From a virus (lineage: Duplodnaviria > Caudoviricetes), in IMG/VR virus record IMGVR_UViG_3300000318_000081, positions 1 to 58,513 of that record: a stretch of 58,513 nt of DNA; one strand, given 5' to 3'. The translations under genes were made by a program, and so were the position numbers. The notes under the pieces were generated by a model. It made no database searches and was not told the DNA's origin. It was given only the letters and a program-made list of their open reading frames with translations. Of this stretch, positions 3,800 to 43,052 are shown in pieces. The first letter of the stretch is position 1. Each line of letters opens with the position of its first letter.

Positions 3800-3860
3800 C
3801 AAATATAGTCGAACTTTACTATTTATAATACTTTCTAAATAAAAAGTTTTCCACAATTTT
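3800..3860 (-). promoter_or_regulatory. DnaA-box promoter copy A
   Basis: Minus strand TGTGGAAAA (3855-3847), ATTTAGAA-agta-TTATAAAT, TATATTTG (3807-3800); near-identical to 15864-15925. Confidence 0.8.
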
Positions 3861-5952
3861 AAAAACTGCTCTCATTTACGACTCTTCTTCTAACTGGAGC
3901 GTGAGTTATTTCGATTATTCTTGGAATAGGTAAAGTATAACAGATATGATTTCCGATCATTCGAGTAATCAATATATCATCATGGGCCCCCAATTTAGCA
4001 CCGAACGAACCATTTTTCTTCTTCTCGAATACTCTAGCTTCGTTTAATGCTTCTTCTGATCTTTCTTTGTATCCGCGCTCTCTCAAAGAGGCAACATAAT
4101 CATCGATGATCATTGTCTTTGTTGAGGTGTTCATGTGGAAGCCATAAACGACCGCTTCACCTTCAATAATTTTATCAGCCGGGGTTCGAGAATAAAGGTT
4201 ATCATAGAATTCTGCAATTGTATCAAAGATAAATTCCGTGTGATCTCCTTCGTTTTTCTCGGTATCGTGTGTGTTACTTTCAATTACTAATAAAGCATGA
4301 TTGTAATAAACGGCTATTTGTGTACTGATCCAGACCAAAAGGTCATGATCAATATGGCCTTTCCATTCGGCCACTACTTCCGGCTTACCTCCGTACATCA
4401 TCCAATAACGATCAAAAACAGTTATTACAGAATAATCCGCTTTTTCACTCCGGCCTCCGGTGTCAACAACAACTACATATCGATCTGATATTTTTTCCAG
4501 TTCCGGAAAGTTCCATATTTTTAGTTTGTTTCGTTCTTTTATATTCCTAGTCTTTGTATCTGAGGTAGTAAATCCTTCTAAAGCTACTCGATCCTCGGTA
4601 AACTTTACGTTCAATAATACTTCTTTTCTTTTCGATGGGAATAGTTTAGCCGTTGAAGGATTACAATCTCCTGATATGTCCCCAATGGCTGTCGGGAATC
4701 GGCAGTCTTTTCTTAAAGCTTCTACATCTTCAGCTCTAAACACTGGTTGACCTGAGTCTTGGAAGGCTTCAATATCATCACTGGGAAACTCTTGTTTCAT
4801 CAATGAATGTGATGTCATTTCCGACAACTTCCCTCTGTACCAATTAATATTTTCTAAGGTACATTCAATATGATTGATAAATAGATTTGTTTCGTATTCG
4901 GTAAATGTCTTTATGAAATCACTTATTGATCCTTTTACTTTTCTTCCTCTGTGATTATAATACGTTCCATCAAATGGCTCTCTATACATATCAATCAGGT
5001 ACCACGGAACAAATACAGGATCAAAAACAGATTCACCGTTTTTAGATTTTTGCCACTCAGTATGAAAGAAGTCTCCAACTCCTTTGGCAGTACTTTCATA
5101 AGCAACTAACGTAAGCGGAACGCGGGGGATCGAGCCGACAATAGATGAAATCAAATCATCTGTCTTCTTCATTTCCGTATTAGGATAAAGGCCGACTTCC
5201 GAAAAGTGGACCATCTTTGCATCTTGTGACCGGACACTCTCCGGGGTTTCTGCAGAACCTACGGTTATTCTACATCCACGGCCGCTTAGAATCTTGATAT
5301 TTTGAGTTCCTTCAAATGGTTTTAATTCGTACCGTTCATCACAAATAGGTATCATTTTAGAAACGACAAGTGAAAACATCGCTCGAATGTTTATGGCCGC
5401 TTGGTTTACATGGGCGCAAATTACGCTATTCCAGTTCTTTTTATGGATGGTTTGAATCCAGTGCATGTAAAGCTGAATCAAAGTTGAGCCTCCCCACTGG
5501 CGGGCCTTTAGAAGTATTACGCGGATAGGAGAACCGGATACTCTCATTTTCTCTAACCGGTCTAATAACCTTCTTTGTCCTCTGTTTATTTTAAATAGGA
5601 TCGGATCGGCCGTTACTTTATCAAAGATTGTATCACAAGTAATAGCAAAGTATTCAAAATCAAATTTATATCTGGTTTCACAGAATTCTATCCAAAATCT
5701 ATCTATAAATCCTTGTGCTGTATCTTCTTTTGATGCTTCGAGTAATTTTTTAATGGAACCATATTTGAGAAGTTTCTTACAAACGTCTAATTTCATCATT
5801 GGCTTAGGCAGGTACAACAAAGGTAAGGGCGCATCCTCTATACAGATTTGCACCCTTTCCCCTTGACATCCTTCTCCTGTAACCGGATTATAAGGTTTGT
5901 CTATTTGTTTATGTCTTTGGGTATTCTCTAATATGATTTCATTTGTATCCAA
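3859..5952 (-). CDS. terL: Terminase large subunit
   Basis: LLKARQWGGST Walker A, HFSEVG Walker B, ESTAKG, VVVVDTGG..DYS and HDD nuclease motifs. Confidence 0.93.
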   Translation of the reverse strand: MDTNEIILENTQRHKQIDKPYNPVTGEGCQGERVQICIEDAPLPLLYLPKPMMKLDVCKKLLKYGSIKKLLEASKEDTAQGFIDRFWIEFCETRYKFDFEYFAITCDTIFDKVTADPILFKINRGQRRLLDRLEKMRVSGSPIRVILLKARQWGGSTLIQLYMHWIQTIHKKNWNSVICAHVNQAAINIRAMFSLVVSKMIPICDERYELKPFEGTQNIKILSGRGCRITVGSAETPESVRSQDAKMVHFSEVGLYPNTEMKKTDDLISSIVGSIPRVPLTLVAYESTAKGVGDFFHTEWQKSKNGESVFDPVFVPWYLIDMYREPFDGTYYNHRGRKVKGSISDFIKTFTEYETNLFINHIECTLENINWYRGKLSEMTSHSLMKQEFPSDDIEAFQDSGQPVFRAEDVEALRKDCRFPTAIGDISGDCNPSTAKLFPSKRKEVLLNVKFTEDRVALEGFTTSDTKTRNIKERNKLKIWNFPELEKISDRYVVVVDTGGRSEKADYSVITVFDRYWMMYGGKPEVVAEWKGHIDHDLLVWISTQIAVYYNHALLVIESNTHDTEKNEGDHTEFIFDTIAEFYDNLYSRTPADKIIEGEAVVYGFHMNTSTKTMIIDDYVASLRERGYKERSEEALNEARVFEKKKNGSFGAKLGAHDDILITRMIGNHICYTLPIPRIIEITHAPVRRRVVNESSF

Positions 5953-6540
5953 TTATCGTAAAATAAAAAACGTAATCAAACTTCCAATTCCGGCAAACAG
6001 CCATTTTGTATTCTTTCCTTTGTTAGCCTTTACTAAAGACTTACTCAGTCCATCACTTATAGCAATCTGTTTTGTATAGGCATTTCCAACAGTCAAAGCA
6101 ATTGAATCTATTGCCTGCTTTTGATTGTGGCACTCGGCTAATTGAATTGAATCAGATACACTCTTTCTTACTAAACTGTCAGAATATCGTTTCTGTGCAA
6201 CTATAGCACTATCGCAATCAGGTGTCAGGTCTGAATCTTTCAGGGCTTTAGTTACTTTTTTTTCAGAATCGGCTTTTTGCCATTTTATAACCGGCTTTAA
6301 TCCGTCTGAAATTTTCTTTTGAGCTACTTCTAACGCCTTTGAAATTTCGGCTTTGTCAGATAAAAATTTGGTTGTCAAATCAGTTTTCTGTTTATTGAGT
6401 TTTGTGTCAACATCCGATTGCGTTATCACCTTGTCTGTTTTATTTCCAGAGAAGTAAGATATTATTCCTACTGAAAGTAATATTCCTACTGCCAGACATA
6501 TTACAGCAACTTTCCAATGTAATTTAATGTACTCTTTCAT
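5953..6540 (-). CDS. Spanin-like membrane protein (candidate)
   Basis: Hydrophobic segments at both termini, helical middle, directly after the endolysin. Confidence 0.5.
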   Translation of the reverse strand: MKEYIKLHWKVAVICLAVGILLSVGIISYFSGNKTDKVITQSDVDTKLNKQKTDLTTKFLSDKAEISKALEVAQKKISDGLKPVIKWQKADSEKKVTKALKDSDLTPDCDSAIVAQKRYSDSLVRKSVSDSIQLAECHNQKQAIDSIALTVGNAYTKQIAISDGLSKSLVKANKGKNTKWLFAGIGSLITFFILR

Positions 6541-6546
6541 GGTTTT

Positions 6547-7830: not shown

Positions 7831-7834
7831 TCGA

Positions 7835-8299: not shown

Positions 8300-8315
8300 T
8301 TTGTTTCGGTTTTAA

Positions 8316-8637: not shown

Positions 8638-11600
8638 TTAATTATACATAAGCGCTATTTCCCATGCGCAAACTTGTCCTGAAGGGGGATTTGTTCCAGA
8701 TGCGAATGTTATGGTTACTAGAACCTGTGTGCTAGAATAAGTTGTTGTAGATATTTGGGTACTTGTAGAATTTGAGTACCTTCCAGTTCCTGTACTTGCT
8801 ATAAAGTTTGTGGTGGTGGCACCAGGCATATTTAAATAAAATGTATACGTTAATACATTACCGCTGGAAGTAAAATACCCAAAAGCAATTACTGTATAAT
8901 ATCCATTTACACACGTCCATTTACTCCCATTTATAGTGACCGAAGACACATATAAAACCCCTCCACCTCCACTTAAAGTTCCTGCCGAAAAACTAATAGA
9001 AGATGGTGTATATCCTAATGCATTTATTATTTGTGTAGAACTGATTCCAGTCAAATAACCCATCGAAGTCCACGGAGTTCCCGTAACAGCATCAGTTATT
9101 CCATAGCCTGAAACTGTGGTCGGATGGCTTGACAATTCGCTAAATGCATAACTAGGCTTACTAGAAGCCTTAGCCCACGCGTAAACATCAGATGCGGGCG
9201 CACTTCCTGCGGTATTGGCATAATTGACACTAAAGTTTGACGGGTTGTAGACGTACATATTTGTGCCGTCGCTTCCGCCCCATAGCCAAGATGGTTGCCC
9301 TCCTTGACCAGACCAATAGAAATTAATTAATGTTCCATCACTTCGATATGGGTATGCTCTTCCCGCTGTGTTTGCGTAATTTACACTTTGACTACCTATA
9401 TTTGATGTGTTTATAGCAGTAGAAGCTAGTTGGTAGTTGCTAGGCGTGAAGTTTCCATTTGACCATAGGTAGAATTCACTTCCATAGCCACCATTATAGC
9501 GACGAAAATAGATAGTTTCATCCCACATCCGTTGGTATATTTGCCATCCATAATTAGTATCTCCAGGATTTGAACCCATTGTTATTCCATTACAATAACC
9601 CATACTTTCGTTAGACCAGCTGTAAAAGGATTGGATTCCATATCCATTTCGGCTGTTTATACTCGCTACAGGATAAATAAAATTAGAGTAATTAGAACTA
9701 TTTGCATATCTAACTCCTAAGTCTGACGGTTCTGTCCAACCACTACCACTGTACGCTCCATTGTTATAAACTAATCGGGCATAATCAATAAAGTTAGTTC
9801 CTTCCCCCCGATGTGTTGCATATCCAGATAAGTCGGGTGTTCCCGAAATTTCACTGTAGGAATAACTAGGTTTACTTACTGCCTTTGCCCAAGAATATAC
9901 GTCACTTGCCGGCAACGATGTTGGAATAGTAGGAGTTCCGCTTATTTCACTGTATGCATAACTAGGCTTCACACTAGATTTCGCCCACGCGTAAACGTCG
10001 CTTGCCGGCAAGGTTGTTGGCATAAGTTGCCAAGTCTTGTCACCACGCCAATATTGGTTTGGGTATCCGGCTGCAATTATCGGTTCATAAGTTCCCGAAT
10101 GCACATGATCTCCATAAGCTGAAAGGTAATGAGTAGTTCCAAATCCTGGGAAAGTCACGGTTGAGGCCGGAGCAGCATTTACATCTGAATATGTAATTGA
10201 GATGGGCATACTACCATCATAGGTCTTAGAGTATCCAGAAGCACCATTAATGGTAAGCGAATACGGATTCTTTAAAGAACTTGGAAAATCACTTATTTGT
10301 GAAGAGGTTATTGAAATACCTGTTGATTTGTTCCAAGCTGTAAATGCCGGTTCTAATTCTGATTTTAAATATCCGGCAGTAGCATGATTACCCCAGCTGT
10401 AAGCAGTTTCAAGCTCTAATTTATACGCATTCGTAAATCGGTTTACATCGGTAACGGATTCGTAAGCTGCCGCTATTTGAGAAGCAGTCATAACCTGATT
10501 TAGTAAATCAGGATCAGAAATTTTGACGTAGGTTGCATTTGTACCTGTGGTTGTTGCTTTATATAAGGCCCATCTTCCGTCTCCGTCATCTAATACAAAT
10601 ACGTTTGTTGGAAGTGTTTCTACGTTGTAGGCATCCCGAACGGTAATATTTGCAACAGTGGTTTCTCTAAATGAGCTAACTATTAAGTCGTAGAGTTTCT
10701 TCAATGTATCACCACTGGTTGATACACCATTTTTTAAGTCGGTTAGAAGCAAAGCGGCTACCCCGGCTTTTTCAGGAGTGAACCCTAATGCGTTTTGCTT
10801 AGAATTGAACGTATCTATCTCAGCAAGAGTTATAAGTCTATCAGTGCCATTTTTATCTACCTTATTAGAAATATCCTCAATATCAGATAGCTGTGAATTG
10901 GTTACATAATTCTGGTCTTCAGTAAGGACAGAAGCAAATTTTAATTTGGATATTAAATATGCGGCAACTCCTTTATTTTCTTTTGTTGCAAGTTGTTGTG
11001 ATGTTACATAATTAGCAGCTACCTCTCTTATAAAATTGAAATCTTCAAATGATTGTAAACCGTCCGTTGTAGCTGTAGCAAGTTTCGGAATTGCATCAAG
11101 AATTTTCTTGTTAATTTGTGATTTAGAGTATATTGAATCTTGACGGGCATACGTTGTATCAATCTCGTTACCCAGTTTATCATTAGTGGCCGAAATAGAT
11201 GAATTTACACTTTTAGTTGCCAATTGACCTGCATATTCAGATTCAATCATTAAGCCTTTCGCATTAATGACTAAATTAAATGGGTCTGTGCTATCTATTG
11301 TTATGTTTTTCCCTTCAGCTATTGACTGTATTCCTATTTTAAAAGGAATCCAATCTTCTGAATCCATATCCCAATACGCGAAAGTTTTTATATCCTGAAT
11401 AAATGAAAACCATCCCAGTTCGCCTCCTTCTGGATAGAGAACATAAAGGTCATTTATAGAAATACATGGGTCTTTCAAGTACCGAAGTACCGGTATATTT
11501 TCAAAAAGATATTTTTTTTTAAATTGCGTTATTTCTTCGGATGGAGTTACTTTTATACTCCAAATAGTATACAGGCAGTTATTTATAAATGAGAATATTA

Positions 11601-12384: not shown

Positions 12385-12399
12385 GGAGTAATTATTATA

Positions 12400-12421
12400 A
12401 GGGTACAAATTAATGTACCCT
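12400..12421. other. Hairpin with AATTAA loop, no U tract
   Basis: AGGGTACA-AATTAA-TGTACCCT perfect 8-bp stem. Confidence 0.6.
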
Positions 12422-12425
12422 CATG

Positions 12426-15811: not shown

Positions 15812-15856
15812 CAAAAAAACTCAATTAAAATAGGCTTGTTAGCACTTGACGCTAAA
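15812..15856 (-). promoter_or_regulatory. Putative late promoter 1 (scaffold/capsid)
   Basis: TTTAGCGTCAAG (15856-15845)-N22-GAGTTTTTTTG. Confidence 0.72.
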
Positions 15857-15863: not shown

Positions 15864-15925
15864 AAAATTGTGGAAAACTTTTTATTTAGAAAGAGTTCTA
15901 AATAGTTCAAGAACCTTTATCTTTG
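15864..15925 (+). promoter_or_regulatory. DnaA-box promoter copy B
   Basis: TGTGGAAAA 15869-15877; ATTTAGAA-agag-TTCTAAAT 15884-15903; TATCTTTG 15918-15925. Confidence 0.82.
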
Positions 15926-15947: not shown

Positions 15948-16385
15948 ATGAAATTGTTTTATCAAGAGGATCGAGATAATGACTTTTATAATGTTTGTGA
16001 ACGCATTAGGGGACAGAACCCCGGATACATATCGGTATCAGATATAGTAAAACAAGCAATCTACTGTGAAGCAGAATCCTTTTATCTTTCCGAATTAATA
16101 ATAGCAAGGATGATTGATAAAATAAAGAAAGGAGAAAAGCCGACTACTAAAAAGGAAGCAAAACAAGAGCTTTATAAGGAGATAGAAAAAAGATTTAGAG
16201 AATTGGATCAGTCTTTATCTTCAATTAAACAGGGTAAATTAATCGACCAACAGACAGCACCAAGGTTCTACATTTCAGAGACAAGAGCTACATGTTTATA
16301 TTATGACTTACTAAAATCAAAACGCAAAGAAAATGCAATACGCAATCGTGCTCGTGTTCTTAATAGTTTTTTCCGTCTTCAATAA
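15948..16385 (+). CDS. Hypothetical protein with an internal duplication, possible DNA-binding regulator
   Basis: Two related motifs EAESFYLSE and TAPRFYISE; basic and helical. Confidence 0.6.
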   Translation: MKLFYQEDRDNDFYNVCERIRGQNPGYISVSDIVKQAIYCEAESFYLSELIIARMIDKIKKGEKPTTKKEAKQELYKEIEKRFRELDQSLSSIKQGKLIDQQTAPRFYISETRATCLYYDLLKSKRKENAIRNRARVLNSFFRLQ

Positions 16386-16914
16386 CGGAGGCTATACAGA
16401 CTCTTCAGCTTTTTACACTCATTTCACGTACATGTTCCAACATCAAAACATTGTACATCTAATTTTGAACTCATTGTCTTTTATCGGAATGTTCCGGTTA
16501 ATGAAAAGGTTCATCAACAAATACACTTTACTATTTACAATCATTCTTATAGGCTTCTTTGCATCGTTCTTGTCAGAGTATGAATTACCTACCGTCGGGG
16601 CTTCTTCAATGATCTACGCTTTAATAGGCCTATTCTTCGGGATGGTTACTTTTGGAAAGTTGAAAGTAACTGACAAAAGACAGTTTTTAATTTTTATCGG
16701 GACTATAACGGCATCATTTTTAATAAGCCTTTTGAAACATAACAGTAATACCTTGGTTCACTTCTATTCTTTATTGATGGGGATTATGTGTTTTTGGGTA
16801 GGTAAAATAAATCTTCGGAAATTATTTAAAAGAGATGATGACATAAAGTTGATTCTTGTGAAATATGAACAAAAACTATTTATAAAATATGAAAAAACTA
16901 ACAACGGGGGATAA
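16333..16914 (+). CDS. Rhomboid-family intramembrane serine protease (minimal)
   Basis: FTYMFQHQNIVHLILN, TVGASSMIY (catalytic Ser), LVHFYSLLMG (catalytic His), multiple TM helices. Confidence 0.85.
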   Translation: MQYAIVLVFLIVFSVFNNGGYTDSSAFYTHFTYMFQHQNIVHLILNSLSFIGMFRLMKRFINKYTLLFTIILIGFFASFLSEYELPTVGASSMIYALIGLFFGMVTFGKLKVTDKRQFLIFIGTITASFLISLLKHNSNTLVHFYSLLMGIMCFWVGKINLRKLFKRDDDIKLILVKYEQKLFIKYEKTNNGG

Positions 16915-17086
16915 TATTGTATCCTCTCAATTTCCGGAATCTATTCAAAAAAAGTATCCATTTATGGACTTTGCAACTTTTGAAGAGTATTATCAAAATA
17001 AAGCGGTATTCCGTTTCGATATACCAGAGTCAGAAAGACTGACATTCAACGGGTCCCGCGTTGGGAGATTTATAACAGAGTTATGA
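16889..17086 (+). CDS. Hypothetical protein
   Basis: 65 aa, overlaps neighbouring ORFs in an operon. Confidence 0.5.
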   Translation: MKKLTTGDNIVSSQFPESIQKKYPFMDFATFEEYYQNKAVFRFDIPESERLTFNGSRVGRFITEL

Positions 17087-17322
17087 AAGAAGTAACACCC
17101 CAAATAATACAATTAGATAATTCTGAAAGAGAAACTATCAAAATGTTAGAACTTCAATTAAAAATGATGTATGACATAACCGGAATTCCAAAAGAACTAT
17201 TTGGAAGCCCAGCTGAGAGTTTCAATTGTAGTATACGAAACGAACGTTACATTAAATTATTTGAACAAAATAACTCTTTAAAAAAACCTCTCACTGTACA
17301 GGCAAGTGACATTAAATTATGA
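17083..17322 (+). CDS. Hypothetical protein
   Basis: 79 aa, 4-nt overlaps with neighbours. Confidence 0.6.
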   Translation: MKEVTPQIIQLDNSERETIKMLELQLKMMYDITGIPKELFGSPAESFNCSIRNERYIKLFEQNNSLKKPLTVQASDIKL

Positions 17323-17672
17323 AAAAGTTTTTAAAATGTTTCTGGGTTTGTATTTTAGAATTAGGATTGACTATATGCATGGTCATATGTACAATTAATT
17401 CAAGTGGCCGCTGCGAAGCAATAGCTTCTTTTGTTGCTGGCATGGCCTTTATCCAATTTGTAGAACACCTTATTTATGGAATTCGAGATTATTATTACGA
17501 TAATATTGAAGAAGATGATGACGAAGCGAAAACAATAAGTATAAATGTTGAATCTCCATATATTAGAACGTGGTGTATTGAACAAGCATTAAAATCTTCA
17601 CAAGTAGGATGTGTAGTTGAAATAGCTAAGGGAATTGAGAATTATGTAACAAATGCAGATAAAAGTGAATAA
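17319..17672 (+). CDS. Hypothetical membrane protein
   Basis: Two N-terminal hydrophobic helices and an acidic linker. Confidence 0.6.
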   Translation: MKKFLKCFWVCILELGLTICMVICTINSSGRCEAIASFVAGMAFIQFVEHLIYGIRDYYYDNIEEDDDEAKTISINVESPYIRTWCIEQALKSSQVGCVVEIAKGIENYVTNADKSE

Positions 17673-17676
17673 AAGC

Positions 17677-18135
17677 ATGAAAAGATATTTAGGAGTAAAG
17701 ATTATTGGAGCAATTCCAATGACAAGATTAGAATACAATGTTTTTCGTGGGTGGAAGTTGTCGGAAGATGAAAACGGAGCCGATGAGGGGTTTTTAGTGG
17801 AGTATGAACCTAACGGTAATCCGAATACAAAAGAGTATAAAGGTTATGTGTCTTGGTCTCCCTATGGCGTATTCCATGAAGCATATCGAGAAACTACCGG
17901 TTTGAATTTCGGACTTGCAATTGAAGCATTGAAAAAAGGTTACAAAGTGGCTCGTACTGGTTGGAATGGAAAAGGTATGTGGCTTAAATACATGAATGGA
18001 AAAAATGGTGAATTACCGCGTGGTTCAAAATATTTACTCCCTTTTATTGGCATGAAAACATCTGATGATGGATTTGTTCCATGGCTTGCAAGTCAAACGG
18101 ATATTCTCGCTGAGGATTGGGAAATTGTAGGATAA
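17677..18135 (+). CDS. tad2: Tad2/DUF2829 anti-defence sponge fused to an N-terminal SWSP domain
   Basis: LNFGLAIEALKKGYKVARTGWNGKGMWL...PWLASQTDILAEDW; N-domain YLGVK..AIPM...GFLVEY...GYVSWSP..VF..AY. Confidence 0.82.
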   Translation: MKRYLGVKIIGAIPMTRLEYNVFRGWKLSEDENGADEGFLVEYEPNGNPNTKEYKGYVSWSPYGVFHEAYRETTGLNFGLAIEALKKGYKVARTGWNGKGMWLKYMNGKNGELPRGSKYLLPFIGMKTSDDGFVPWLASQTDILAEDWEIVG

Positions 18136-18209
18136 ATACAGATAAAAATGAATAGAATTTATATGTCGATGGGTAAAACAGATGGGTAAACCAACACGAG
18201 TATAAAATC

Positions 18210-18245
18210 AAGAAAGCCTTCAGAAATTAATCTGAAGGCTTTCTT
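18210..18245. terminator. Bidirectional terminator
   Basis: AGAAAGCCTTCAGA-AATTAA-TCTGAAGGCTTTCT between convergent genes. Confidence 0.85.
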
Positions 18246-21650: not shown

Positions 21651-21709
21651 TTTGTGGATAACTTTTTATTTAGAATTTGTTCTAAATAGTAATAAAGGAG
21701 TTATCTTTG
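21651..21709 (+). promoter_or_regulatory. DnaA-box promoter copy C
   Basis: TGTGGATAA 21653-21661 (perfect TTATCCACA); ATTTAGAA-tttg-TTCTAAAT 21668-21687; TATCTTTG 21702-21709. Confidence 0.82.
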
Positions 21710-21719: not shown

Positions 21720-21998
21720 ATGAAATTTGATAAAATTGAGTTCGAAACGATAGTAGGTTCAAGACCTGAAGGATCGGGAGCCGAATGGATGACTGATGAA
21801 GATTGGAAAAAACATGATGAATATGTGGAAAGATGCAAATTAGATGGTTCTTATGGAACTAAACAGAGACAAACGCTATTTGTAATGTCAGACCCAATAT
21901 TTGACAATTGTAAAAATAATAATATTGTCTTGGATGAATCAACTTTAGTTAAATTTGAAATTAATGATTTATCAAAAACAAAAATACTAGGACTATGA
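21720..21998 (+). CDS. Hypothetical protein
   Basis: 92 aa, first gene after promoter C. Confidence 0.65.
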   Translation: MKFDKIEFETIVGSRPEGSGAEWMTDEDWKKHDEYVERCKLDGSYGTKQRQTLFVMSDPIFDNCKNNNIVLDESTLVKFEINDLSKTKILGL

Positions 21999-22777
21999 AA
22001 ACACTAAATCTATTTTTAAAAATGCACTTCACTAGCCTTTCACCTGATGGACAACCTATTAGTTTGGCAATTGTAAGTGATCCATTTTTATCAAAAGTAA
22101 ATGTTGGTGATGAAACTTTATTTGGGGGAAATATTCAACAACAATCAAATGCTCAGTACATAAATAATTCTAAATCGTTTTACGCTGAGTTCTCAGGATT
22201 CGACATTAGACGGTGTGATGATTGGGTAAAAGAGAATGTTGTGAGTAAATTACAGTTTAATCATGAAATATATTCTTTTCAACCTAAAGCTTTTACATAT
22301 CAGTCAATTGAGGTTAAAGCTAAAAGTTGGGATATTAAATACTTAATTGATTGTTGGATTTCTCAATTCTCTGACTATAAACTAAACTTCGTGGTTGATT
22401 GTGGTTGGTTTTGTTGGGGAAAGTTTGTTGAATTAATGGGGGAGTGGGAAAATATAAGTCTTGATTTTGATTATTCAAATTGCAATCCAATGCAACGATA
22501 TGAAATTGAGCGGGCATTAAAATTAAAGAGAGGTCTTCCAAAACTTCCAGCTAACTTTCCGCCCGTTCCACAAGACCTTAATGATCTTATATCTCAAAAG
22601 AAGGGAATTAGCGTAAGTGAAGCGTTTGAACTGGATAGAGAAGAACTTGCAAGTGGGATGCATTCATCATCCTTATGTTCTGGTAATGTTATTTGCAATG
22701 ATGGATCATTACCTCATAAGTATAACGCTCTTTGGGATGCAAAAGTAACTAAAGCTATTTATGAAAAACTAAAGTAA
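21995..22777 (+). CDS. DEDDh 3'-5' exonuclease-like protein (DUF5051/RNase AS-like), catalytically degenerate
   Basis: ISLAIVSD, SFYAE, DDWVKENV, NALWDAK; motif I reads FLKMHFT instead of FFDTEFT. Confidence 0.65.
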   Translation: MKTLNLFLKMHFTSLSPDGQPISLAIVSDPFLSKVNVGDETLFGGNIQQQSNAQYINNSKSFYAEFSGFDIRRCDDWVKENVVSKLQFNHEIYSFQPKAFTYQSIEVKAKSWDIKYLIDCWISQFSDYKLNFVVDCGWFCWGKFVELMGEWENISLDFDYSNCNPMQRYEIERALKLKRGLPKLPANFPPVPQDLNDLISQKKGISVSEAFELDREELASGMHSSSLCSGNVICNDGSLPHKYNALWDAKVTKAIYEKLK

Positions 22778-22779
22778 TC

Positions 22780-23229
22780 ATGAAACTACCACGCTCACTA
22801 AAGCTCCCCAGAAAACTCAAAAAAGAGTTGAAAAAAGGATTTAGACAAAACATACATCCTTTTTTCCCGAATATCAATAAAGTTGGTATTCTTAGCGGAA
22901 ATTATTCTATTAGCTGTCATCAAAACATTACCTATTCCGGTAGCAATACGAAATCATTCTTCCGTCTATGCAGATATGCTCGTAAAGAACAAGTACGAAT
23001 GATGAAAATTCGTATGGATTTTGAAATTGAATCAAATAAGATTTTATTTGCTCAATTAAATACTCCTACATATGACAAACGTGATTTTATTCGTGAGCAG
23101 GAAGCAAAATTAGACCTACAATTTATCCAAGAGCATGGTTTTGTTTATAAACCGGATGCTCACATGGTTTTATGGAAGCATGGAATTCTTGAAACCGGAT
23201 GTTCCATTCACAATGGGCCATGGGAATAG
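22780..23229 (+). CDS. Hypothetical basic protein
   Basis: 149 aa, N-terminal KLPRSLKLPRKLKK. Confidence 0.6.
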   Translation: MKLPRSLKLPRKLKKELKKGFRQNIHPFFPNINKVGILSGNYSISCHQNITYSGSNTKSFFRLCRYARKEQVRMMKIRMDFEIESNKILFAQLNTPTYDKRDFIREQEAKLDLQFIQEHGFVYKPDAHMVLWKHGILETGCSIHNGPWE

Positions 23230-23256
23230 ACATTAGTTTTCCTAAATTAAAAATAA

Positions 23257-36792: not shown

Positions 36793-37418
36793 TATTTTAC
36801 GGTTAAAGTTGCATCTGGTATTTGAAGAGATGCAGGATTGTTATTGATTGAAGTTTGTTGTGCGATTGCAGAACGTGTTCCTGTAACAGGAGCGGGAGTA
36901 CCTAAAGCTGTTGCCAACCCACTGGCTCCGTTACCAATTTGTTTAATACCGTTCGACATTAGGTTCTCGTAGCTGTTTGCATTTGTAGCCATGTTATTGT
37001 ATTCTTGATTTCCTAACTGATTCTTACGAGCCATGTACTTATCGGTTAGTCCGTCTTTCCACTGTTGGCCAATTGCAGCAACCCTTGAAGTTGTATCTGT
37101 AAGTGTTTTGTTGGATTGTTCTTTAGCTACTGCTGTAGCCTCTGGGGTAGCGCCGGTAACGGCAGCAGTATTTGCAGCTACTTCGTTGTTCTTTTTTAGT
37201 GCGTCCCTTGTATTCTTCATTAAGGCTTGTGTGTCTGCTCTATTTGTATAGTCAGAGTAATAGTTCTTATTGTACCAGTTTTCGTTATCAGCCTGTTGTC
37301 CGTTAAGATAAGACTGCATCTTTTTGTTTTCCTGCCCAGCCTTTATACCTCCGTAAATACTTTCACCTAGACCGACCGCTGTGCCTAGTCCCGGCACTAA
37401 TGAATCTAATAATCCCAT
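36792..37418 (-). CDS. Putative ejection / DNA-pilot protein
   Basis: Gly-rich N-term GLGTAVGLGESIYGG followed by an A/N/Q-rich helix. Confidence 0.65.
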   Translation of the reverse strand: MGLLDSLVPGLGTAVGLGESIYGGIKAGQENKKMQSYLNGQQADNENWYNKNYYSDYTNRADTQALMKNTRDALKKNNEVAANTAAVTGATPEATAVAKEQSNKTLTDTTSRVAAIGQQWKDGLTDKYMARKNQLGNQEYNNMATNANSYENLMSNGIKQIGNGASGLATALGTPAPVTGTRSAIAQQTSINNNPASLQIPDATLTVK

Positions 37419-37437
37419 AATTGTATATTTTAATTTA

Positions 37438-37482
37438 CAAATTAAGACTAAACAGGTTCAAATCTTACCACTTGACGCTAAA
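37438..37482 (-). promoter_or_regulatory. Putative late promoter 3 (ejection operon)
   Basis: TTTAGCGTCAAG (37482-37471)-N22-GTCTTAATTTG, same elements as promoter 2. Confidence 0.78.
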
Positions 37483-37493
37483 TAATGAGCCAT

Positions 37494-37550
37494 TGTGCAT
37501 AAGTAATGAGTATGAGAGGGATGTATGAATGAAATAAACATTTAGCTTTG
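37494..37550 (+). promoter_or_regulatory. DnaA-box promoter copy D (no palindrome)
   Basis: TGTGCATAA 37494-37502 and TAGCTTTG 37543-37550, same 56-nt spacing as copies B and C. Confidence 0.7.
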
Positions 37551-37574
37551 CATTTATTTGAATTTATCAAAGCC

Positions 37575-37892
37575 ATGGAAACTGAAAAGAAAACTGTAAA
37601 TAAGGGGGGATTGAAGAAAGGTCAAACTAATAATCCCAAAGGAAAACCGAAAGGAACAAAGAATAAACTAACTGTTGATGTAAAGCAAAAGATAGCTGAT
37701 TACATAGGGGAGGGGTTTGATGATTTCAAAAAAACTGTTTCTGCTATCACTAATAAAACAGATCAGGCAAGAATATACATTGAGCTATGTAAGATGATAA
37801 TTCCAAAGCCTGTTGATCCTATCGCCAAGAAGGAAGAAGACAAGTTCCACACCGAGTTCATGAAGCGTTTATTCCCTAATAGAGATGAATAA
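37575..37892 (+). CDS. Putative terminase small subunit
   Basis: KKGQTNNPKGKPKGTKNKLT motif typical of TerS-like/DUF5681 N-termini; ATG 37575. Confidence 0.6.
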   Translation: METEKKTVNKGGLKKGQTNNPKGKPKGTKNKLTVDVKQKIADYIGEGFDDFKKTVSAITNKTDQARIYIELCKMIIPKPVDPIAKKEEDKFHTEFMKRLFPNRDE

Positions 37893-37956
37893 TTTAACGC
37901 ATTCATATCTGTTTTAATTATAATACATTAGTCTACTTCTGTCACAGGGTGGAGAC

Positions 37957-37991
37957 AAAAAAAAGCCAGTCAAATTAATGATTGGCTTTTT
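37957..37991. terminator. Bidirectional terminator
   Basis: AAAAAGCCAGTCA-AATTAA-TGATTGGCTTTTT. Confidence 0.82.
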
Positions 37992-38019
37992 ATTAGTTTG
38001 TATCCAAACTGAAGTTACA

Positions 38020-38535
38020 TTATTGTATTTGTTTTTCAAGTTGTAATCCTCTTTCACATGCTTCCAATGAAGTTTTAAATGTATCCTCTACATCTATGGT
38101 AACACCTGTTTCATTGTCTTTGACATAAAGAATCCAAGGTTCTTCCAAATCTTCACGTTCAGCCTTATTTATAAAATAATTGTCGCTGCTCCACTTTGAA
38201 CATCTTTCGTCCAAAATTTCGTTTAAAACTTCAATCTGTTTTTCATACTCCAAGAGTTCAGGATCATTTTCTTCATAATCATAAGCATTGATTGATTGCA
38301 TAAGGTTTGCATACTTTGAGAATTCTTCTGGAGTAAATAGCTCTTCATAGATATTTACGCTAATGAATTTACTATTTGATCTGATAATTTCATTCATAAA
38401 TTCATCAGAGGCTTCTTTTAGAGCAGCTTCTAATACATCTTCGTCAGAATCTAAATGCCTTTCTGATACAGCTTCTAATTTAGCTTCTAACATACATTGT
38501 TCTTGATAAGTAAGAATTTCTTCAGGTGATTTCAT
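38020..38535 (-). CDS. Hypothetical acidic protein
   Basis: 171 aa, very E/D-rich. Confidence 0.7.
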   Translation of the reverse strand: MKSPEEILTYQEQCMLEAKLEAVSERHLDSDEDVLEAALKEASDEFMNEIIRSNSKFISVNIYEELFTPEEFSKYANLMQSINAYDYEENDPELLEYEKQIEVLNEILDERCSKWSSDNYFINKAEREDLEEPWILYVKDNETGVTIDVEDTFKTSLEACERGLQLEKQIQ

Positions 38536-38566
38536 AATGTTATGTTTTAAATGTTTGGCAACTGGT

Positions 38567-38770
38567 TTACGCTATTGCTTTAATACCTTTTGCGGCCACC
38601 TTCGCTGTTTCTTTAATGTTCTCGTAACTCATTTCAAGTGTTTCCTCATAGCCTATGCCATACGTCCGATCTTCTCCCTCTTTTCTCAACTGATTTAGTG
38701 TTTGGTACTTTGTGATCTGAAGCAATGCGGTGCGCATCTTATTGAAATTTGCTTTCTCTTTATCGTTCAT
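38567..38770 (-). CDS. Hypothetical protein
   Basis: 67 aa, overlaps the HTH gene. Confidence 0.65.
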   Translation of the reverse strand: MNDKEKANFNKMRTALLQITKYQTLNQLRKEGEDRTYGIGYEETLEMSYENIKETAKVAAKGIKAIA

Positions 38771-38976
38771 GGTTCCGATTTTATTATGTCTATTTTACTA
38801 TCCAATTCTTTTGCAATCCGAACAAGAACATCAAGTCCGGGGGAATACTTCGCGTTTTCTATTCTGTTTAAATCTACTCTTGTTACTCCTGATAGATTAG
38901 CAAGTTCTAACTGTGTAAGATGTTTTTGTTTCCTGAGTTTTGAAATCTTCTTTCCAATGCGCTCTCTATCGTTCAT
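38767..38976 (-). CDS. XRE/Cro-family HTH regulator
   Basis: IGKKISKLRKQKHLTQLELANLSGV....NRIENAKYSP. Confidence 0.9.
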   Translation of the reverse strand: MNDRERIGKKISKLRKQKHLTQLELANLSGVTRVDLNRIENAKYSPGLDVLVRIAKELDSKIDIIKSEP

Positions 38977-39217
38977 ACCATTCTGGGTTATTTTTTCGTG
39001 ACTTATAACAATGATTATTTGTTTCTCTCAATTTCTTTAGATCAGCTAATGCCTTTCCTGTTACATCTTTAAACTGAAGTAAATTATCAGACTCGAAATT
39101 TTCTTCTATAAACTGTTTTGTTTCATCAGTAAGTCCTACGTATTGTTTGAGGACTTCATTAGCAGTTCTATTTATCCTCTTTAAAGCCCGAAGGTCTGAA
39201 GTTGTTGGTGTATTCAT
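38966..39217 (-). CDS. Hypothetical protein
   Basis: 83 aa, first gene of the moron operon. Confidence 0.65.
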   Translation of the reverse strand: MNTPTTSDLRALKRINRTANEVLKQYVGLTDETKQFIEENFESDNLLQFKDVTGKALADLKKLRETNNHCYKSRKNNPEWYER

Positions 39218-39249
39218 ACTCTTTATTTTTTTGATTGTTTTTTACTTCA

Positions 39250-39294
39250 CAAATGTAGTAGTTATACATGAAATGTATCCTTATTACGATACAT
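39250..39294 (-). promoter_or_regulatory. Moron promoter with palindromic operator
   Basis: TACATTTG (39257-39250); ATGTATC-N8-GATACAT at 39273-39294. Confidence 0.65.
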
Positions 39295-39320
39295 ATTTAA
39301 CTATGATTAACCATAAACGA

Positions 39321-39350
39321 AAACCCCCTACAATTTAATGCAAGGGGTTT
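39321..39350 (-). terminator. Terminator
   Basis: Minus-strand RNA AAACCCCUUGCA-UUAAAU-UGUAGGGGGUUU, fully paired with G-U. Confidence 0.7.
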
Positions 39351-39370
39351 ACTTATTATTTTAATCAATT

Positions 39371-39766
39371 CTAATCCTCTTCTGGTAGAAAATCGGAAAG
39401 GTCTGCATCTTCTAACCAGTTTGTGATCGTTCCGGTTTCATCAATGTCCAACTCTAAATAATCACCATACTCACCCGGAAGTAAAGCGTTAGGCACATAG
39501 TTACTTTCGATTGATAAGACTTCTTTCCCTTCTACATCCTGTAAGAAATACGATCCTTCATCACATATCTTCATACAGAATGATCCGGTTTTCCCCTGTG
39601 GCCAATCAATGATCTTTCCTTTATCAATATCAATAGTTGCGATCCACATGTCACCAACTCTAAATGGGAAGTCATTTGGAATGTCTTCTTCACCATACCT
39701 TACGGCTATTTCTACTCTTACTGTCTTAATCTCCACTTCAGTGGGAACATAAATTGTTACTTTCAT
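39371..39766 (-). CDS. Hypothetical acidic phage protein
   Basis: 131 aa, KICDEGSY and GDYLELDID motifs. Confidence 0.7.
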   Translation of the reverse strand: MKVTIYVPTEVEIKTVRVEIAVRYGEEDIPNDFPFRVGDMWIATIDIDKGKIIDWPQGKTGSFCMKICDEGSYFLQDVEGKEVLSIESNYVPNALLPGEYGDYLELDIDETGTITNWLEDADLSDFLPEED

Positions 39767-39790
39767 TTTGTTGTTTTTAAATTGATAATC

Positions 39791-42736
39791 TTATCTCATT
39801 TTTTCATTATTATATTCTACTTCGGCTTCGGCTTCTATTTGCGATATTTCGCTTTGTTCGTCTAAAGCTGCCGCGAAACAGTAAATAAATTGCCTATGTT
39901 TGTTCTGTGTCATTAATCCCAAGTCAATATCTTTATAGTTTCCCGAATTAAACGTCATTCCTTGTACTGGCACGAAGTTTATACCATCATTGGAACAATG
40001 GTTCATTGCTATCATATTCTTAGCCCCTATGAGCCTTGCACGAAGTATTAGCCTATCCAATTTCTTTTTATCTGGTGTTGAAAAATTGAATGGTCTCGTT
40101 ACGATTGATACATTAGCCTTATCGTATGTGGTAACATTTACTAGGGTAGTTGTCTTAGGAAGTGAGTAATCCTTCAAGTAAGTATGATCCGTTGTTTCAG
40201 TGACTAATAATTCAGGATAAACACCTCCAACCACTTTATCAATCTTCTCTGTTGACTGATACATTTCCCTTGTATCAATATTCAGAACGAAATTATAATC
40301 CATAGAAGAATTTACAATTATTATCTCATTATTAAGATTGTCGTAAATAATATCTGTTATGGTTTCCAAGTAGGTAGAGAACCATTCGTTCCATGTCTTC
40401 AGTCCTGAAATAGTTGGAACGCTTGTTATAGATGGCAATGTAATATTGTAAGGTGTTGGCTCTTGTTCTAACTTTGGAGTTAAGGAATCTACCTGCTGAC
40501 CATTTATAATAAATAAACCACGTTTTCCAATAAAAACAACCCCAAAAGGTGTTGAACAAATAATGTCTGAAATTGGAGTCTCATTGCTTATTGGAGTTTC
40601 ATTAGAATAGACCACATCCCCGGACCCTACATTTAATGCGTACACGTTCTCAGAGGTTAATACATACATAGGATATTGGCCAAATTGTCCATCGCTTGTA
40701 CGCATTGCATTTGACCTGGCATTTCTTATAAACCCTGAGCCCACTAAATAAGTATTTATAGAAAGGAAGTCGAAAGGATTATTTAGCTTAGACACTTTCA
40801 TCCCATTACGATAAATATCTTCCCGTTGAACCTCAGATGGCACATTCTCAATTGCTCCAGAAGTAAAAGAAGTAAAAGGTATTGGTTTTAAATCATCCGG
40901 TATGTAGTATGAATAATTCTGATAGTCACTTGATGTTAGTTTGAATGTTTGCTTCGCATAGAACGAACCAGTATAGTTATTGTAAAACTGATATATAGTC
41001 ATTTCAGTTGCTCTCGAATCCGGGTAACTAAGCATCCCTAAATCCGTGAATGAACTTAAATCAGTGCTATATCTAACTACTTTTGATATTCCGATAGTCG
41101 TTTTTATTGAAACTTCAATGTAATACATGAAAGTAGCACTATTTGGGGTTACAGAAGTAGCTAAAAACTGTCCAGCTCCTTGTTTAGCTTGTAAATAATT
41201 TAGTGGGAATCCGCGAGAAAACAATGTTTTATAGTCAATGGCATGAAGTCTTGAATTATAAACCATCTGCTTTTTCGGAACTAAGGCATGATGTGTAAAA
41301 TTATCAACAGGAAGTAATTCTAAATTTATAAGAGAATCTCCGAGTTTATCCTTCAAATCAATATCAATCCAATCGCCTGAAACTATTTCATCAAATGTAA
41401 TTTCATGTACCTTATAAAACTCTGTAAGTGTTTCTATATCTGTTTTAAGTTCCGCATTAGTCTTGATTACGGGAAAATGATTCTCTGCACAGTAATTTGA
41501 ATTACTAGAGTCCATATATCTGGATTGTTCAATAAATGATGATTTTCCAGATACTTTATAAAGTTGGGTAGAAGGAGTTATAAAAACTGATATTGATTTA
41601 ATAAGAGGTTCAAAAGACTTATCAATATTTTGGTTTATCTTAAATTGAAGTTTATTATAAGAAGCCCACATCCATGTTGGCTTTGCTATTACATTCCCAT
41701 CTGAATATCTCTTATCATAATACCCCATCAAATTGGGTATATAGTCTAACTCTGTAGCTACTTTATTTGTTGAAGCTGGAACAAAAGCATAAGAGCCTCC
41801 AAGACCCGCTTTAAAACTTCCATCATCTTCTGGCGTTATGGTTGTATAAGTACCATCTCCATGTTCTATCTTAAGATTAATTCCATCAATGACAAGATCA
41901 CATCCATTTAAAATTGATCCTCCATCTACTATTGGCCAAAATATGGCTTGTTTTGACTTATAATCAAAAGTTTGACTATCAGCAATTAATTCCGAATACC
42001 GTGTTTTTTCATCCCATGCTTCACCACATAAAACAGGATTTGATTGAAGAATGTAAGAACCATCATATAGTTCAACAGCCGTACATGCAAAAAAGAATCC
42101 GGTGAGTTTACCTTCTGCTTGAAGCAAACTAATAGCTTTATTCATCAATCCATTTGTAGAATCAGCTCTTAACTGACGGTTTGTTGACGAATCAGAATCA
42201 CCCGTACTCGAATATCCAAACGTTGTATCACTCTTATAAAGTCTTACTTCTCTCTTTCCTGCTGTACCCAAATATCCGGTGTCCCCCATAACTCCAGTTA
42301 CTCTTAAATCTACTTCTCCAATAGGAGTAATAACATTATCTGTCTGAAGTCCATCGTAATTTGTAGAAATTAATCTATACGAGTTATCATACCACATAAT
42401 GTATTTGAATCCAGTAGAGTCAAGTATATTTAAAATGTTACCAATTTGGGTTATTGTCGGAATACTAGATACGGCGCAAACTAATGTTTCCGTTGAATCG
42501 GTGAAGAAATACACATTGTTGTTTCTTATTCCGATCCAATTTTCACCAGTACTAGGAAGGTTGTGCACAAACAAGACATCATAATAATTATTTAGCTGTT
42601 TTGTTATCTGTCTTGGAGTAACCGGCTTTAAAGCTCCGTTTTTCTTTCGAAGGTTTACTAAGGACATACAGTCTCCATCTGGATAGGCGGACGAAGTTGT
42701 TATCCCTGTAATTGGGATTTGAGTTCTGATTGACAT
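39791..42736 (-). CDS. Tail stabilisation / nozzle protein (P22 gp10-like)
   Basis: 981 aa beta-rich; DGDCMSLVNLR, GQFGQYPMY, VVFIGKRGL, TRPFNF; preceded by the late motif. Confidence 0.68.
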   Translation of the reverse strand: MSIRTQIPITGITTSSAYPDGDCMSLVNLRKKNGALKPVTPRQITKQLNNYYDVLFVHNLPSTGENWIGIRNNNVYFFTDSTETLVCAVSSIPTITQIGNILNILDSTGFKYIMWYDNSYRLISTNYDGLQTDNVITPIGEVDLRVTGVMGDTGYLGTAGKREVRLYKSDTTFGYSSTGDSDSSTNRQLRADSTNGLMNKAISLLQAEGKLTGFFFACTAVELYDGSYILQSNPVLCGEAWDEKTRYSELIADSQTFDYKSKQAIFWPIVDGGSILNGCDLVIDGINLKIEHGDGTYTTITPEDDGSFKAGLGGSYAFVPASTNKVATELDYIPNLMGYYDKRYSDGNVIAKPTWMWASYNKLQFKINQNIDKSFEPLIKSISVFITPSTQLYKVSGKSSFIEQSRYMDSSNSNYCAENHFPVIKTNAELKTDIETLTEFYKVHEITFDEIVSGDWIDIDLKDKLGDSLINLELLPVDNFTHHALVPKKQMVYNSRLHAIDYKTLFSRGFPLNYLQAKQGAGQFLATSVTPNSATFMYYIEVSIKTTIGISKVVRYSTDLSSFTDLGMLSYPDSRATEMTIYQFYNNYTGSFYAKQTFKLTSSDYQNYSYYIPDDLKPIPFTSFTSGAIENVPSEVQREDIYRNGMKVSKLNNPFDFLSINTYLVGSGFIRNARSNAMRTSDGQFGQYPMYVLTSENVYALNVGSGDVVYSNETPISNETPISDIICSTPFGVVFIGKRGLFIINGQQVDSLTPKLEQEPTPYNITLPSITSVPTISGLKTWNEWFSTYLETITDIIYDNLNNEIIIVNSSMDYNFVLNIDTREMYQSTEKIDKVVGGVYPELLVTETTDHTYLKDYSLPKTTTLVNVTTYDKANVSIVTRPFNFSTPDKKKLDRLILRARLIGAKNMIAMNHCSNDGINFVPVQGMTFNSGNYKDIDLGLMTQNKHRQFIYCFAAALDEQSEISQIEAEAEVEYNNEKMR

Positions 42737-42749
42737 AGTCGTTTATTCG

Positions 42750-42794
42750 CAAAAATAAACGACTACAAATCAAAAGCTAATCCTTGACACTAAA
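42750..42794 (-). promoter_or_regulatory. Putative late promoter 4 (tail)
   Basis: TTTAGTGTCAAG (42794-42783)-N22-GTTTATTTTTG. Confidence 0.7.
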
Positions 42795-43052
42795 ACATTT
42801 ATGATCAGACTCTATTTGTTTGAACTTTTCATCATTAGTAGATCGAAGAGCATCAATAATAACTAGACTATTAATTACTGTTGCATGGTCCCGGTTGAAC
42901 ACTTGTCCTATTTGATTCAATGTCATGCCTGATTTACGTAAGCATTCAATACATAGATTCCTTTTTATTCTAACCTCCATCTTTCTGGACTCTCCAAATA
43001 GTTCATCCTCGGCTATTCCGGTCATTTCTGATTGATATTCGCGTGTACACAT
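42777..43052 (-). CDS. DnaA domain IV (Bac_DnaA_C)-only DNA-binding protein
   Basis: LFGESR..EVRIKR...MTLNQIGQVFNRDHATVINS matches the DnaA signature SLxxIGxxFxxRDHTTV. Confidence 0.82.
   Translation of the reverse strand: MCTREYQSEMTGIAEDELFGESRKMEVRIKRNLCIECLRKSGMTLNQIGQVFNRDHATVINSLVIIDALRSTNDEKFKQIESDHKCFSVKD

Follow-up and report, generated by a model that had tools for sequence, protein, structure and literature searches.

The virus record IMGVR_UViG_3300000318_000081 (Caudoviricetes) was analysed over its entire length of 58,513 bp, here called the window. It encodes a 91-amino-acid (aa) protein that consists only of domain IV of DnaA, called mini-DnaA or P0001 below, and it contains four promoters carrying a DnaA-box-like sequence at an almost constant distance from their -7 element. 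This position is kept in related phages, and each lineage-specific variant of the box is accompanied by its own variant of the mini-DnaA recognition helix. A sequence-only reading of this DNA had paired a box regulon with the phage domain IV-only protein, a pairing that is supported by the covariation of box and helix and by the fixed upstream position in the relatives. We lean, with some reserve, towards mini-DnaA being a phage activator that would bind about 56 nucleotides (nt) upstream of promoters devoid of a -33 element.

Box promoters and the elements around them

The four promoters, P1 to P4, lie at 3800-3855 (minus strand) and at 15869-15925, 21653-21709 and 37494-37550 (plus strand). 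Each had been described as a TAnnTTTG promoter preceded by a TTWTNCACA box, with 55, 56, 56 and 56 nt separating the start of the box from the final G of TAnnTTTG; all four sites and all four distances were found again:

3847..3855, minus strand: P1 box, TGTGGAAAA, 4 nt past the TerL stop codon
3800..3807, minus strand: P1 -7 element, TATATTTG, distance 55 nt
15869..15877, plus strand: P2 box, TGTGGAAAA
15918..15925, plus strand: P2 -7 element, TATCTTTG, distance 56 nt
21653..21661, plus strand: P3 box, TGTGGATAA, equivalent to a perfect TTATCCACA
21702..21709, plus strand: P3 -7 element, TATCTTTG, distance 56 nt
37494..37502, plus strand: P4 box, TGTGCATAA
37543..37550, plus strand: P4 -7 element, TAGCTTTG, distance 56 nt

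In the TTWTNCACA sense the boxes read TTTTCCACA in P1 and P2, TTATCCACA in P3 and TTATGCACA in P4, which corresponds to TGTG[G/C]AWAA in the opposite sense. The P4 box varies at position 5, which the DnaA-box consensus leaves free. The 9-mer as such is not enriched in the whole window (9 matches of TTWTNCACA against 8.88 expected); intergenic DNA makes up only 3.9% of the window, yet holds four of these nine matches. The full pattern of box, spacing and -7 element is expected 0.01 times for one spacing and was observed four times over three spacings. None of the remaining 61 of the 65 TAnnTTTG sites of the window has a perfect box at 54-57 nt.

The Bacteroidota sigma-ABfr promoter consensus is given in PMC7366714 as TAnnTTTG at -7 and TTTG at about -33. 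The -7 sequence is present in the four box promoters of the window and in 11 of 13 across the clade, the other two being near-matches. In contrast, TTTG at -33 (16-23 nt 5' of the -7 element) is missing in 12 of the 13, P3 being the exception; the host tRNA-Pro promoter in the same window does have it. Such a lack of the -33 element fits dependence on an activator.

P1, P2 and P3 have in common a block of 46-48 nt, 83-91% identical, which contains the box and a palindrome; P4 has only the box and an upstream element in common with them. Since P1 to P3 are paralogous copies, the window alone gives about two independent cases, and it is the relatives that decide.

These relatives are designated here by G and L numbers, which stand for related genomes, records or contigs (C for a contig; G000 is the phage of the window). 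A profile search with mini-DnaA found genes in the portal relatives G003, G004, G005 and G006 and in the metagenome-assembled genomes (MAGs) G012 and G013. A profile search with a 981-aa protein, encoded next to mini-DnaA in the window, found L353, L354/L355, L357 and L358. In each of these, the 981-aa homologue comes immediately after a mini-DnaA gene, a synteny also seen in G012 and G013. One record, L360, does not conform, with no mini-DnaA gene within the 16 kb of its sequence examined. All relatives have TerL homologues (51-60% identity), and the locus past TerL is orthologous in most of them, with stop codon, promoter region and the homologue of a 174-aa open reading frame (ORF). In L353, L355, L357, L358 and G012:C218, this post-TerL locus carries a box and a -7-like element.

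Among all 36 occurrences of the lineage boxes (duplicate L354 dropped), 13, on 8 contigs, are followed by a -7-like element whose end lies 55 or 56 nt from the start of the box: four in G000, three in G012:C218 and one each in L355, G013:C105, L142, L353, L358 and L357. Chance would give 0.17 with the relaxed -7 element, and 0.05 against 11 observed with strict TAnnTTTG, figures that treat orthologous promoters as independent and are uncorrected for shared descent. Nine of these promoters, on seven contigs, lie outside the window, seven of the nine directly before homologues of the 174-aa or 145-aa proteins; in G012, the box promoter at 8586 is directed towards a 105-aa ORF located before TerL. 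The spacers themselves are unrelated, with 4-21 identities over 38 positions between lineages at the P1 orthologue. When the promoters are aligned on the -7 element, conservation is concentrated in the box half GAAAAC and in the -7 element, a few scattered spacer columns reaching agreement in 7-9 of 13 rows. Loss of the spacing in relatives had been set as a test that would speak against the circuit. Instead, the nine promoters keep 55-56 nt, and three others have the box at 76-77 nt, that is 21 nt more. The latter are the P2 orthologues of G003, G005 and G006, which, together with L142 and G012:C218 (both at 55 nt), make up the five contigs with a 145-aa homologue behind a box promoter.

Before the 145-aa homologue of L142, two tandem TTTTCGACA boxes lie 22 nt apart (13593-13623), at 55 and 77 nt from the -7 element, which are both of the distances seen singly in other lineages. 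A further candidate, L030, whose mini-DnaA is 45% identical, was set aside: both of its boxes fall inside coding regions, and neither has a -7 element at 56 nt.

Two additional elements accompany the boxes. The first, element 2 (TTTAGCGTCAAG on the minus strand), is found 11-12 nt from the boxes of P2, P3 and P4. Its copies, in the minus-strand sense, are:

15845-15856: element 2 at P2
21629-21640: element 2 at P3
37471-37482: element 2 at P4
42783-42794: element 2 with 1 mismatch, no box alongside, before the 981-aa gene

In all four, element 2 (TTTAGYGTCAAG) is followed by TTTG after exactly 29 nt and precedes the leftward structural operons and the 981-aa gene; element 2 with its TTTG marks a second promoter class, divergent and leftward. 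Element 2 is lineage-specific, reading TTTTTCATTTC in G003, G005, G006 and L069 and TTTTCGTTTC in G013, and the 13 box-plus-element 2 modules, on 6 contigs, all precede a late-type gene. In G012, the stretch past the box, CCCG(T)ATTATC(C)GCA, resembles element 2 by eye, unscored.

The second element is the palindrome TTTAGAA-N4-TTCTAAA, which lies over the -33 region, between box and -7 element:

15885-15902: palindrome in P2
21669-21686: palindrome in P3
3822-3839: palindrome in P1, with 1 mismatch

It is absent from P4, and no copy with fewer than 2 mismatches was found elsewhere in the window. It resembles the operator of a dimeric protein. The HTH_3 protein of the window, considered as its reader, finds no support in this role: its own promoter region has a different inverted repeat in place of the P1-P3 palindrome. 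Together, the palindrome and element 2 imply additional readers.

Mini-DnaA and its covariation with the box

The mini-DnaA gene immediately precedes the 981-aa gene's promoter:

42777..43052, minus strand: mini-DnaA P0001, 91 aa, DnaA domain IV only, final gene of the leftward block 43052-58513
39791..42736, minus strand: 981-aa gene; wherever both genes were observed in an examined relative, its homologue comes after the mini-DnaA gene

The assignment of ORF 42777-43052 to DnaA domain IV alone, made earlier from the letters, is upheld by a match of residues 8-63 to Pfam PF08299 Bac_DnaA_C (43.3 bits, cut-off 31.5). The basic-loop Arg is kept, as is the motif R-D-H-A-T, where Escherichia coli DnaA has R-D-H-T-T. 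Profiles of the mini-DnaA family match DnaA chains of the PDB with E values of 6.7e-14 to 1.3e-11 (1e-08 for 1J1V), and the ESM Atlas model of P0001 (predicted template-modelling score, pTM, 0.52) superposes on DnaA C-terminal domains with TM 0.73-0.78 over 86-90 residues. R23 and R31 are invariant in the eight clade mini-DnaAs and align with Arg of 1J1V, namely E. coli R399 and R407 if, as we presume, that chain starts at residue 374; the P0001 basic-loop Arg aligns with the second Arg of KRR in 1J1V. The box positions contacted by R399 were reportedly described by Fujikawa in 2003. The base-contacting residues of E. coli DnaA are listed in PMC2533591 as R399, P423, D433, H434, T435 and H439. 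Two of them, D433 and H434, are matched by D55 and H56 of P0001; A57, at the T435 position, is the same as in the host DnaA of G013, and L45 aligns with E. coli L422.

Two other readings of P0001 were discarded. It is not a chromosomal initiator DnaA: with 91 residues, it has neither the AAA+ domain III nor domains I-II, and its scores with the NCBIfam DnaA equivalogs (33-44 bits) are far below the cut-offs of 344-657. Recent capture of domain IV from the host was also rejected, with 32% identity over 47 residues to the host DnaA of G013. A match to NF004687 (16.4 bits, cut-off 181) is too weak to speak for or against membership of the GafY/HdaB family. A phmmer search of the PDB with P0001 gave no match, and a word-index protein search returned only P0001 itself. 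Stand-alone DnaA domain IV proteins form large clusters, mostly viral, with between 62 and 266 members; at E <= 0.001, P0001 is matched by 368 representative clusters. In the closest subfamily (P0001 with P0002, P0004, P0007 and P0009), C2, C34, C37 and H84 are invariant and a Cys is present at 86 in four of five sequences; this Cys/His set, absent from the other clade mini-DnaAs and from DnaA, may be a metal site joining the domain ends.

The upstream neighbour of the mini-DnaA gene (43054-43362) has a sub-threshold match to DUF551 and a weak similarity to the G005 neighbour alone (30% over 70 aa). No further Pfam-recognisable DNA-binding protein was found in the early block, and in the rest of the window only the 69-aa HTH_3 protein was; numerous small early ORFs are without a family match.

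Five lineage-specific box variants were observed, each with its own variant of the mini-DnaA recognition helix:

Helix RDHAT: box TGTG[G/C]AWAA, in the phage of the window (G000)
Helix R[T/S/K]H[S/T]T: box TGTAGAWAA, in G003, G005 and G006
Helix RKQHST or RKAHST: box TGTCGAAAA, in G013 and L355
Helix RRKQT: box GGCAGAAAA, in G012, L353 and L358
Helix RKPET: box TATAGAAAA, in L357

One box half, GAAAA (TTTTC, positions 1-5 of the DnaA box), is constant, as is the Arg aligned to R399, a residue that reads the minor groove according to PMC9638019; the other half varies together with the helix. A residue-to-base code for the D433 position was considered and dropped, T, S and K all accompanying one box.

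In the phage of the window alone, a canonical DnaA box goes together with the RDHAT helix motif that a Bacteroidales host DnaA has. Cross-reading of its boxes by host DnaA is therefore possible. As a general mechanism it is disfavoured: in the other four of the five lineages, the boxes break TTWTNCACA at position 6 or beyond (TTWTCTACA, TTTTCGACA, TTTTCTGCC, TTTTCTATA). The G013 genome has its own DnaA with RDHATVLHA, yet its prophage box is TTTTCGACA, which disfavours host DnaA as general reader. On these grounds, the suggestion of the sequence-only reading that host DnaA could serve as ligand is not supported as a general statement.

The activator reading and its alternatives

In the scheme towards which we lean, mini-DnaA would be expressed as the final gene of the early block and would then bind the box, whose centre is about 52 nt 5' of where the -7 element ends. 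From this upstream activator position, the bound protein would switch on host sigma-A type promoters that have no -33 element. Its predicted targets are a 174-aa gene with two tRNAs, an operon with the 145-aa, rhomboid and Tad2-like genes, an RNase H-like operon and a DUF5681-like gene. From the sequence data, we infer that mini-DnaA is the box binder, that it activates rather than represses, and when it would do so.

Several observations weigh against this scheme. Box type and helix type alike go with the TerL tree (five clades, at least four changes), so that the same correlation would be expected of any other lineage-specific factor. The position aligned to D433 holds T, S or K among members of the TGTAGAWAA clade, with the box unchanged. 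P0001 departs from E. coli DnaA at three of the six base-contact positions (P423 to N46, T435 to A57 and H439 to N61). As a single domain of 91 aa, it appears to have no evident module for contacting RNA polymerase, and a Pfam scan of the gene next to it found no GafZ-like, sigma-like partner. G004 encodes two mini-DnaA-like proteins, one with RDHTT, and its TAnnTTTG sites showed no common box at 55-56 nt on the 5' side. G003 and G006 each have one box that precedes the portal gene and has no gene on its other flank, so that the box is not confined to one orientation. Finally, the reader of the palindrome could be the real switch for P1, P2 and P3.

The alternative that survives best, though we hold it to be unlikely, is that the box is real and constrained in position but is read by another lineage-specific factor of phage or host, mini-DnaA acting elsewhere: it might bind element 2 of the late promoters, act at the phage origin or disturb the host control of DnaA. 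In its favour, box and helix types simply track phylogeny, element 2 is as lineage-specific as the box, and the many small early ORFs without family match offer other candidates. The Caulobacter protein HdaB, identical to GafY, is reported to bind HdaA and to raise initiation, and E. coli L422, with which L45 of P0001 aligns, is called critical for the Hda contact in the same source (PMC7049699). However, it is the lineage with the RDHAT helix whose box fits the canonical TTWTNCACA in all four promoters, and the invariant Arg goes with the invariant box half. Element 2, for its part, is unlike a DnaA box, and the mini-DnaA gene is syntenic in all box-bearing lineages.

Another alternative makes host DnaA the main reader of the four boxes in this phage, which would tie the operons to the replication state, with mini-DnaA modulating or competing. 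Chromosomal DnaA acts as a transcription factor at DnaA boxes, and all four boxes fit TTWTNCACA, one of them being a perfect TTATCCACA and P4 varying only at the free position 5. This is nevertheless improbable, as related phages of the same architecture have boxes that break the consensus, G013 does so beside a host DnaA with RDHATVLHA, and drift with the phage lineage is not expected of a site read by the host. A separate reading is that in this lineage the phage activator and its sites converged on, or kept, the host DnaA code, the regulon being co-read by host DnaA and mini-DnaA blocking host initiation at oriC; this we regard as a decidedly speculative proposal, less doubtful than host DnaA as main reader. 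If it were true, the timing of phage genes would sense the initiation potential of the host, and mini-DnaA, having no AAA+ domain, would sit on host DnaA boxes both at oriC and within the DnaA regulon. Transcription of the phage and replication of the host would then be coupled in both directions through a common DNA code.

The box might also mainly serve the divergent late (structural) promoters, its distance to the rightward -7 element resulting incidentally from the compactness of the divergent regions. The boxes of P2, P3 and P4 are indeed 11-12 nt from element 2, itself followed by TTTG after 29 nt in all four copies, and each of the 13 box-plus-element modules of six contigs is placed before a late-type gene. 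At G003:21382 and G006:960, moreover, the portal gene is the only target, with an inverted box 55 nt from the portal TTTG. Still less should be expected of this explanation than of host DnaA as main reader: P1 and its orthologues (L353, L355, L357, L358 and G012) come right after the TerL stop codon, have no divergent promoter and keep 55-56 nt, whereas the distances on the late side vary (55, 64 and 65), and the promoter of the 981-aa gene has element 2 without a box. A stronger form, with boxes as elements of leftward late operons only and an unconserved rightward spacing (77 against 56), was overturned by the 55-56 nt promoters of the relatives. The portal boxes themselves (G003 about 21382 and G006 about 960, at loci L042/L043 and L044) come after the terminator of the preceding gene.

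Coincidence, that is a duplicated promoter cassette that happens to hold a DnaA-box-like 9-mer, would agree with the 83-91% identity of P1 to P3 over 46-48 nt and with the lack of TTWTNCACA enrichment, but is hardly credible, as P4 keeps box and spacing without the cassette and nine promoters on seven other contigs keep the position with unrelated spacers, against 0.05-0.17 expected by chance.

Known systems, target genes and the phage

The sequence-only reading took the circuit to be undescribed. This stands for phages, for which no case was found, but GafY and GafA have been published as domain IV-like activators of phage-derived structural genes. Literature searches, which covered the articles proper, returned no described phage case and no assigned phage function for stand-alone domain IV proteins. 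They point to such an activator circuit having been described so far only for gene transfer agents (GTAs).

GafY (HdaB, CCNA_01111) of the Caulobacter crescentus GTA is a small stand-alone homologue of DnaA domain IV. It is reported to bind an upstream element of about 20 promoters of packaging, structural and accessory genes, with degenerate -35 regions, and to activate them through the housekeeping sigma factor (sigma-70), with IHF and GafZ (PMC9632790, PMC11150451). It had first been described, as HdaB, as a replication regulator (PMC7049699). GafY and P0001 are likened here by description: both are a small domain IV-like helix-turn-helix only, in a phage-derived element (portal, major head protein, terminase and integrase in the window). 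They also differ. GafY comes from an alphaproteobacterial GTA rather than an infectious phage, whereas the mini-DnaAs are found in infectious-type temperate phages of another phylum. As reported, GafY requires IHF and binds a long way upstream, at -123 to -113, its site has an ACTATG core rather than a DnaA box, and the sigma-like GafZ is encoded alongside; the phage sites are DnaA-box-like, promoter-proximal and fixed in position, and mini-DnaA has no GafZ-like neighbour. HdaB is also reported to be without an equivalent of Arg-399 (PMC7049699), an Arg kept by all clade phage mini-DnaAs.

In GafA, the N-terminal DnaA-like helix-turn-helix is needed to activate the RcGTA structural promoters, and in Hyphomicrobiales this DnaA-like part is a separate small gene (PMC9638019). 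GafA is however a 42-kDa fusion whose central domain binds the omega subunit of RNA polymerase and whose C-terminal domain is sigma-like, while P0001 is the DNA-binding domain alone. The gene position of mini-DnaA is like that of the RinA, LtrC and ArpU families, small late-operon activators of phages, encoded at the end of the early region, that turn on packaging and morphogenesis operons (PMC3753634); these have unrelated folds and Gram-positive or enterobacterial hosts. Chromosomal DnaA has the domain IV fold predicted for P0001, the same 9-bp box as this phage and, in a Bacteroidales DnaA, the same RDHAT motif; it differs in having the AAA+ domain and domains I-II. Lambda Q, of comparable gene position, is an antiterminator and not an upstream activator.

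The transcriptional programmes of Bacteroidales phages have hardly been described, and the clade suggests a function for phage domain IV proteins, as upstream activators of promoters without -33 element. The five box/helix pairs form a natural series that could show how domain IV reads site positions 6-9, and they could serve as orthogonal activator-promoter sets for Bacteroides engineering. Since the box of this phage is also the host DnaA box, a link between the control of phage genes and the replication of the host is open to direct test.

The genes behind the four promoters are the following:

3261..3785, minus strand: 174-aa ORF behind P1, with homologues behind box promoters in 6 other contigs
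3182-3256: tRNA-Met, after the 174-aa ORF
2976-3049: tRNA-Asn, after the 174-aa ORF
15948..18135, plus strand: P2 operon, with the 145-aa gene, rhomboid, three small ORFs and Tad2-like gene
15948-16385, plus strand: conserved 145-aa gene, first in the P2 operon
16333-16914, plus strand: rhomboid-family protein, P2 operon
17653-18135, plus strand: Tad2-like (Thoeris anti-defence) domain protein, P2 operon
21720..23229, plus strand: P3 operon, with a 92-aa ORF, a 260-aa RNase H-like protein (phrog_2259) and a 149-aa ORF
37548..37892, plus strand: ORF behind P4, ATG at 37575, DUF5681 at 25.2 bits, below the cut-off of 27.5

The tRNA array that had been placed behind P1 amounts to two tRNAs (Met and Asn), and the conserved 174-aa ORF comes first. 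Both named members of the rhomboid/Tad2 operon were matched, so that the Tad2-like and rhomboid-family genes are in one and the same box-bearing operon. The exonuclease named for the P3 operon matches a PHROG named RNase H, and for the supposed TerS-like gene behind P4 the sole match is the sub-threshold DUF5681. The hairpin terminators of the P2 and P3 operons are related (18204-18248 and 23250-23294, 78% identity over 45 nt), which would suit a joint copying of promoter and terminator as a cassette frame.

The window, with 36% G+C, is the entire virus record. A Bacteroidota-type tyrosine integrase follows a host tRNA-Pro, which indicates the left attachment (attL) side of a prophage: the window covers most of a temperate Bacteroidales phage from its left end, where attL is at tRNA-Pro, and the prophage runs off the right end of the window. 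attL looks placed at the 3' end of tRNA-Pro (host flank 1-2769). Portal relatives were found in Bacteroidales MAGs of Dysgonamonadaceae, Prevotella and Tannerella. The main features are:

1-1128, minus strand: HemN-like radical-SAM gene, host flank
1300-1375: tRNA-Pro, host flank, with a complete -33/-7 promoter
1546-2769: tyrosine integrase, Bacteroidota-type (Arm-DNA-bind_5, Phage_int_SAM_5)
3859-5952: TerL-like protein
8638-12408: tail fibre
13567-14952: major head protein
19584-21584: portal
23689-35550: DarB-like giant protein, 3953 aa
58513 to 42777, leftward: early block, with a RecT-like protein, PDDEXK protein, helicase, NinG and methyltransferase
48678-49058: NinG, upstream of the mini-DnaA gene

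Other searches for relatives gave little. Megablast of window positions 36000-46000 against phage records found no match, the exact promoter-block pattern had 0 matches in viral contigs, and a search for related loci with the 981-aa protein alone found none. A looser promoter-block pattern gave 20 single matches, of which only L020 was followed; it is block-like, but is a 52%-complete record without a mini-DnaA match. Among the 80 of 94 matches listed for the pattern GAAATGAAAAA-N-TGTAGAWAA, nearly all are a coding repeat of unrelated phages and one is a new relative, L069. The module was present in 0 of the 186 matches of CTTGACGCTAAA-N-TGTG in metagenome and viral contigs.

Two further features of the window can be mentioned. 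Three tandem units of about 290 nt, each with the same upstream sequence, are found at 45924-46787; two of them hold intact paralogous genes (46190-46525 and 46485-46763), whose proteins start with MAHTKGNW and MEHTKGEW and both contain NAKLIAA-P, and the third is a truncated remnant (46014-46081). The HTH_3 protein (Cro/CI-type, RstR-like, 69 aa; 38767-38976, minus strand) belongs to a small leftward operon, the promoter region of which (39250-39320) contains TACATTTG at 39250-39257 and the inverted repeat ATGTATC-N8-GATACAT; the protein is a candidate regulator of the immunity or antitoxin type.

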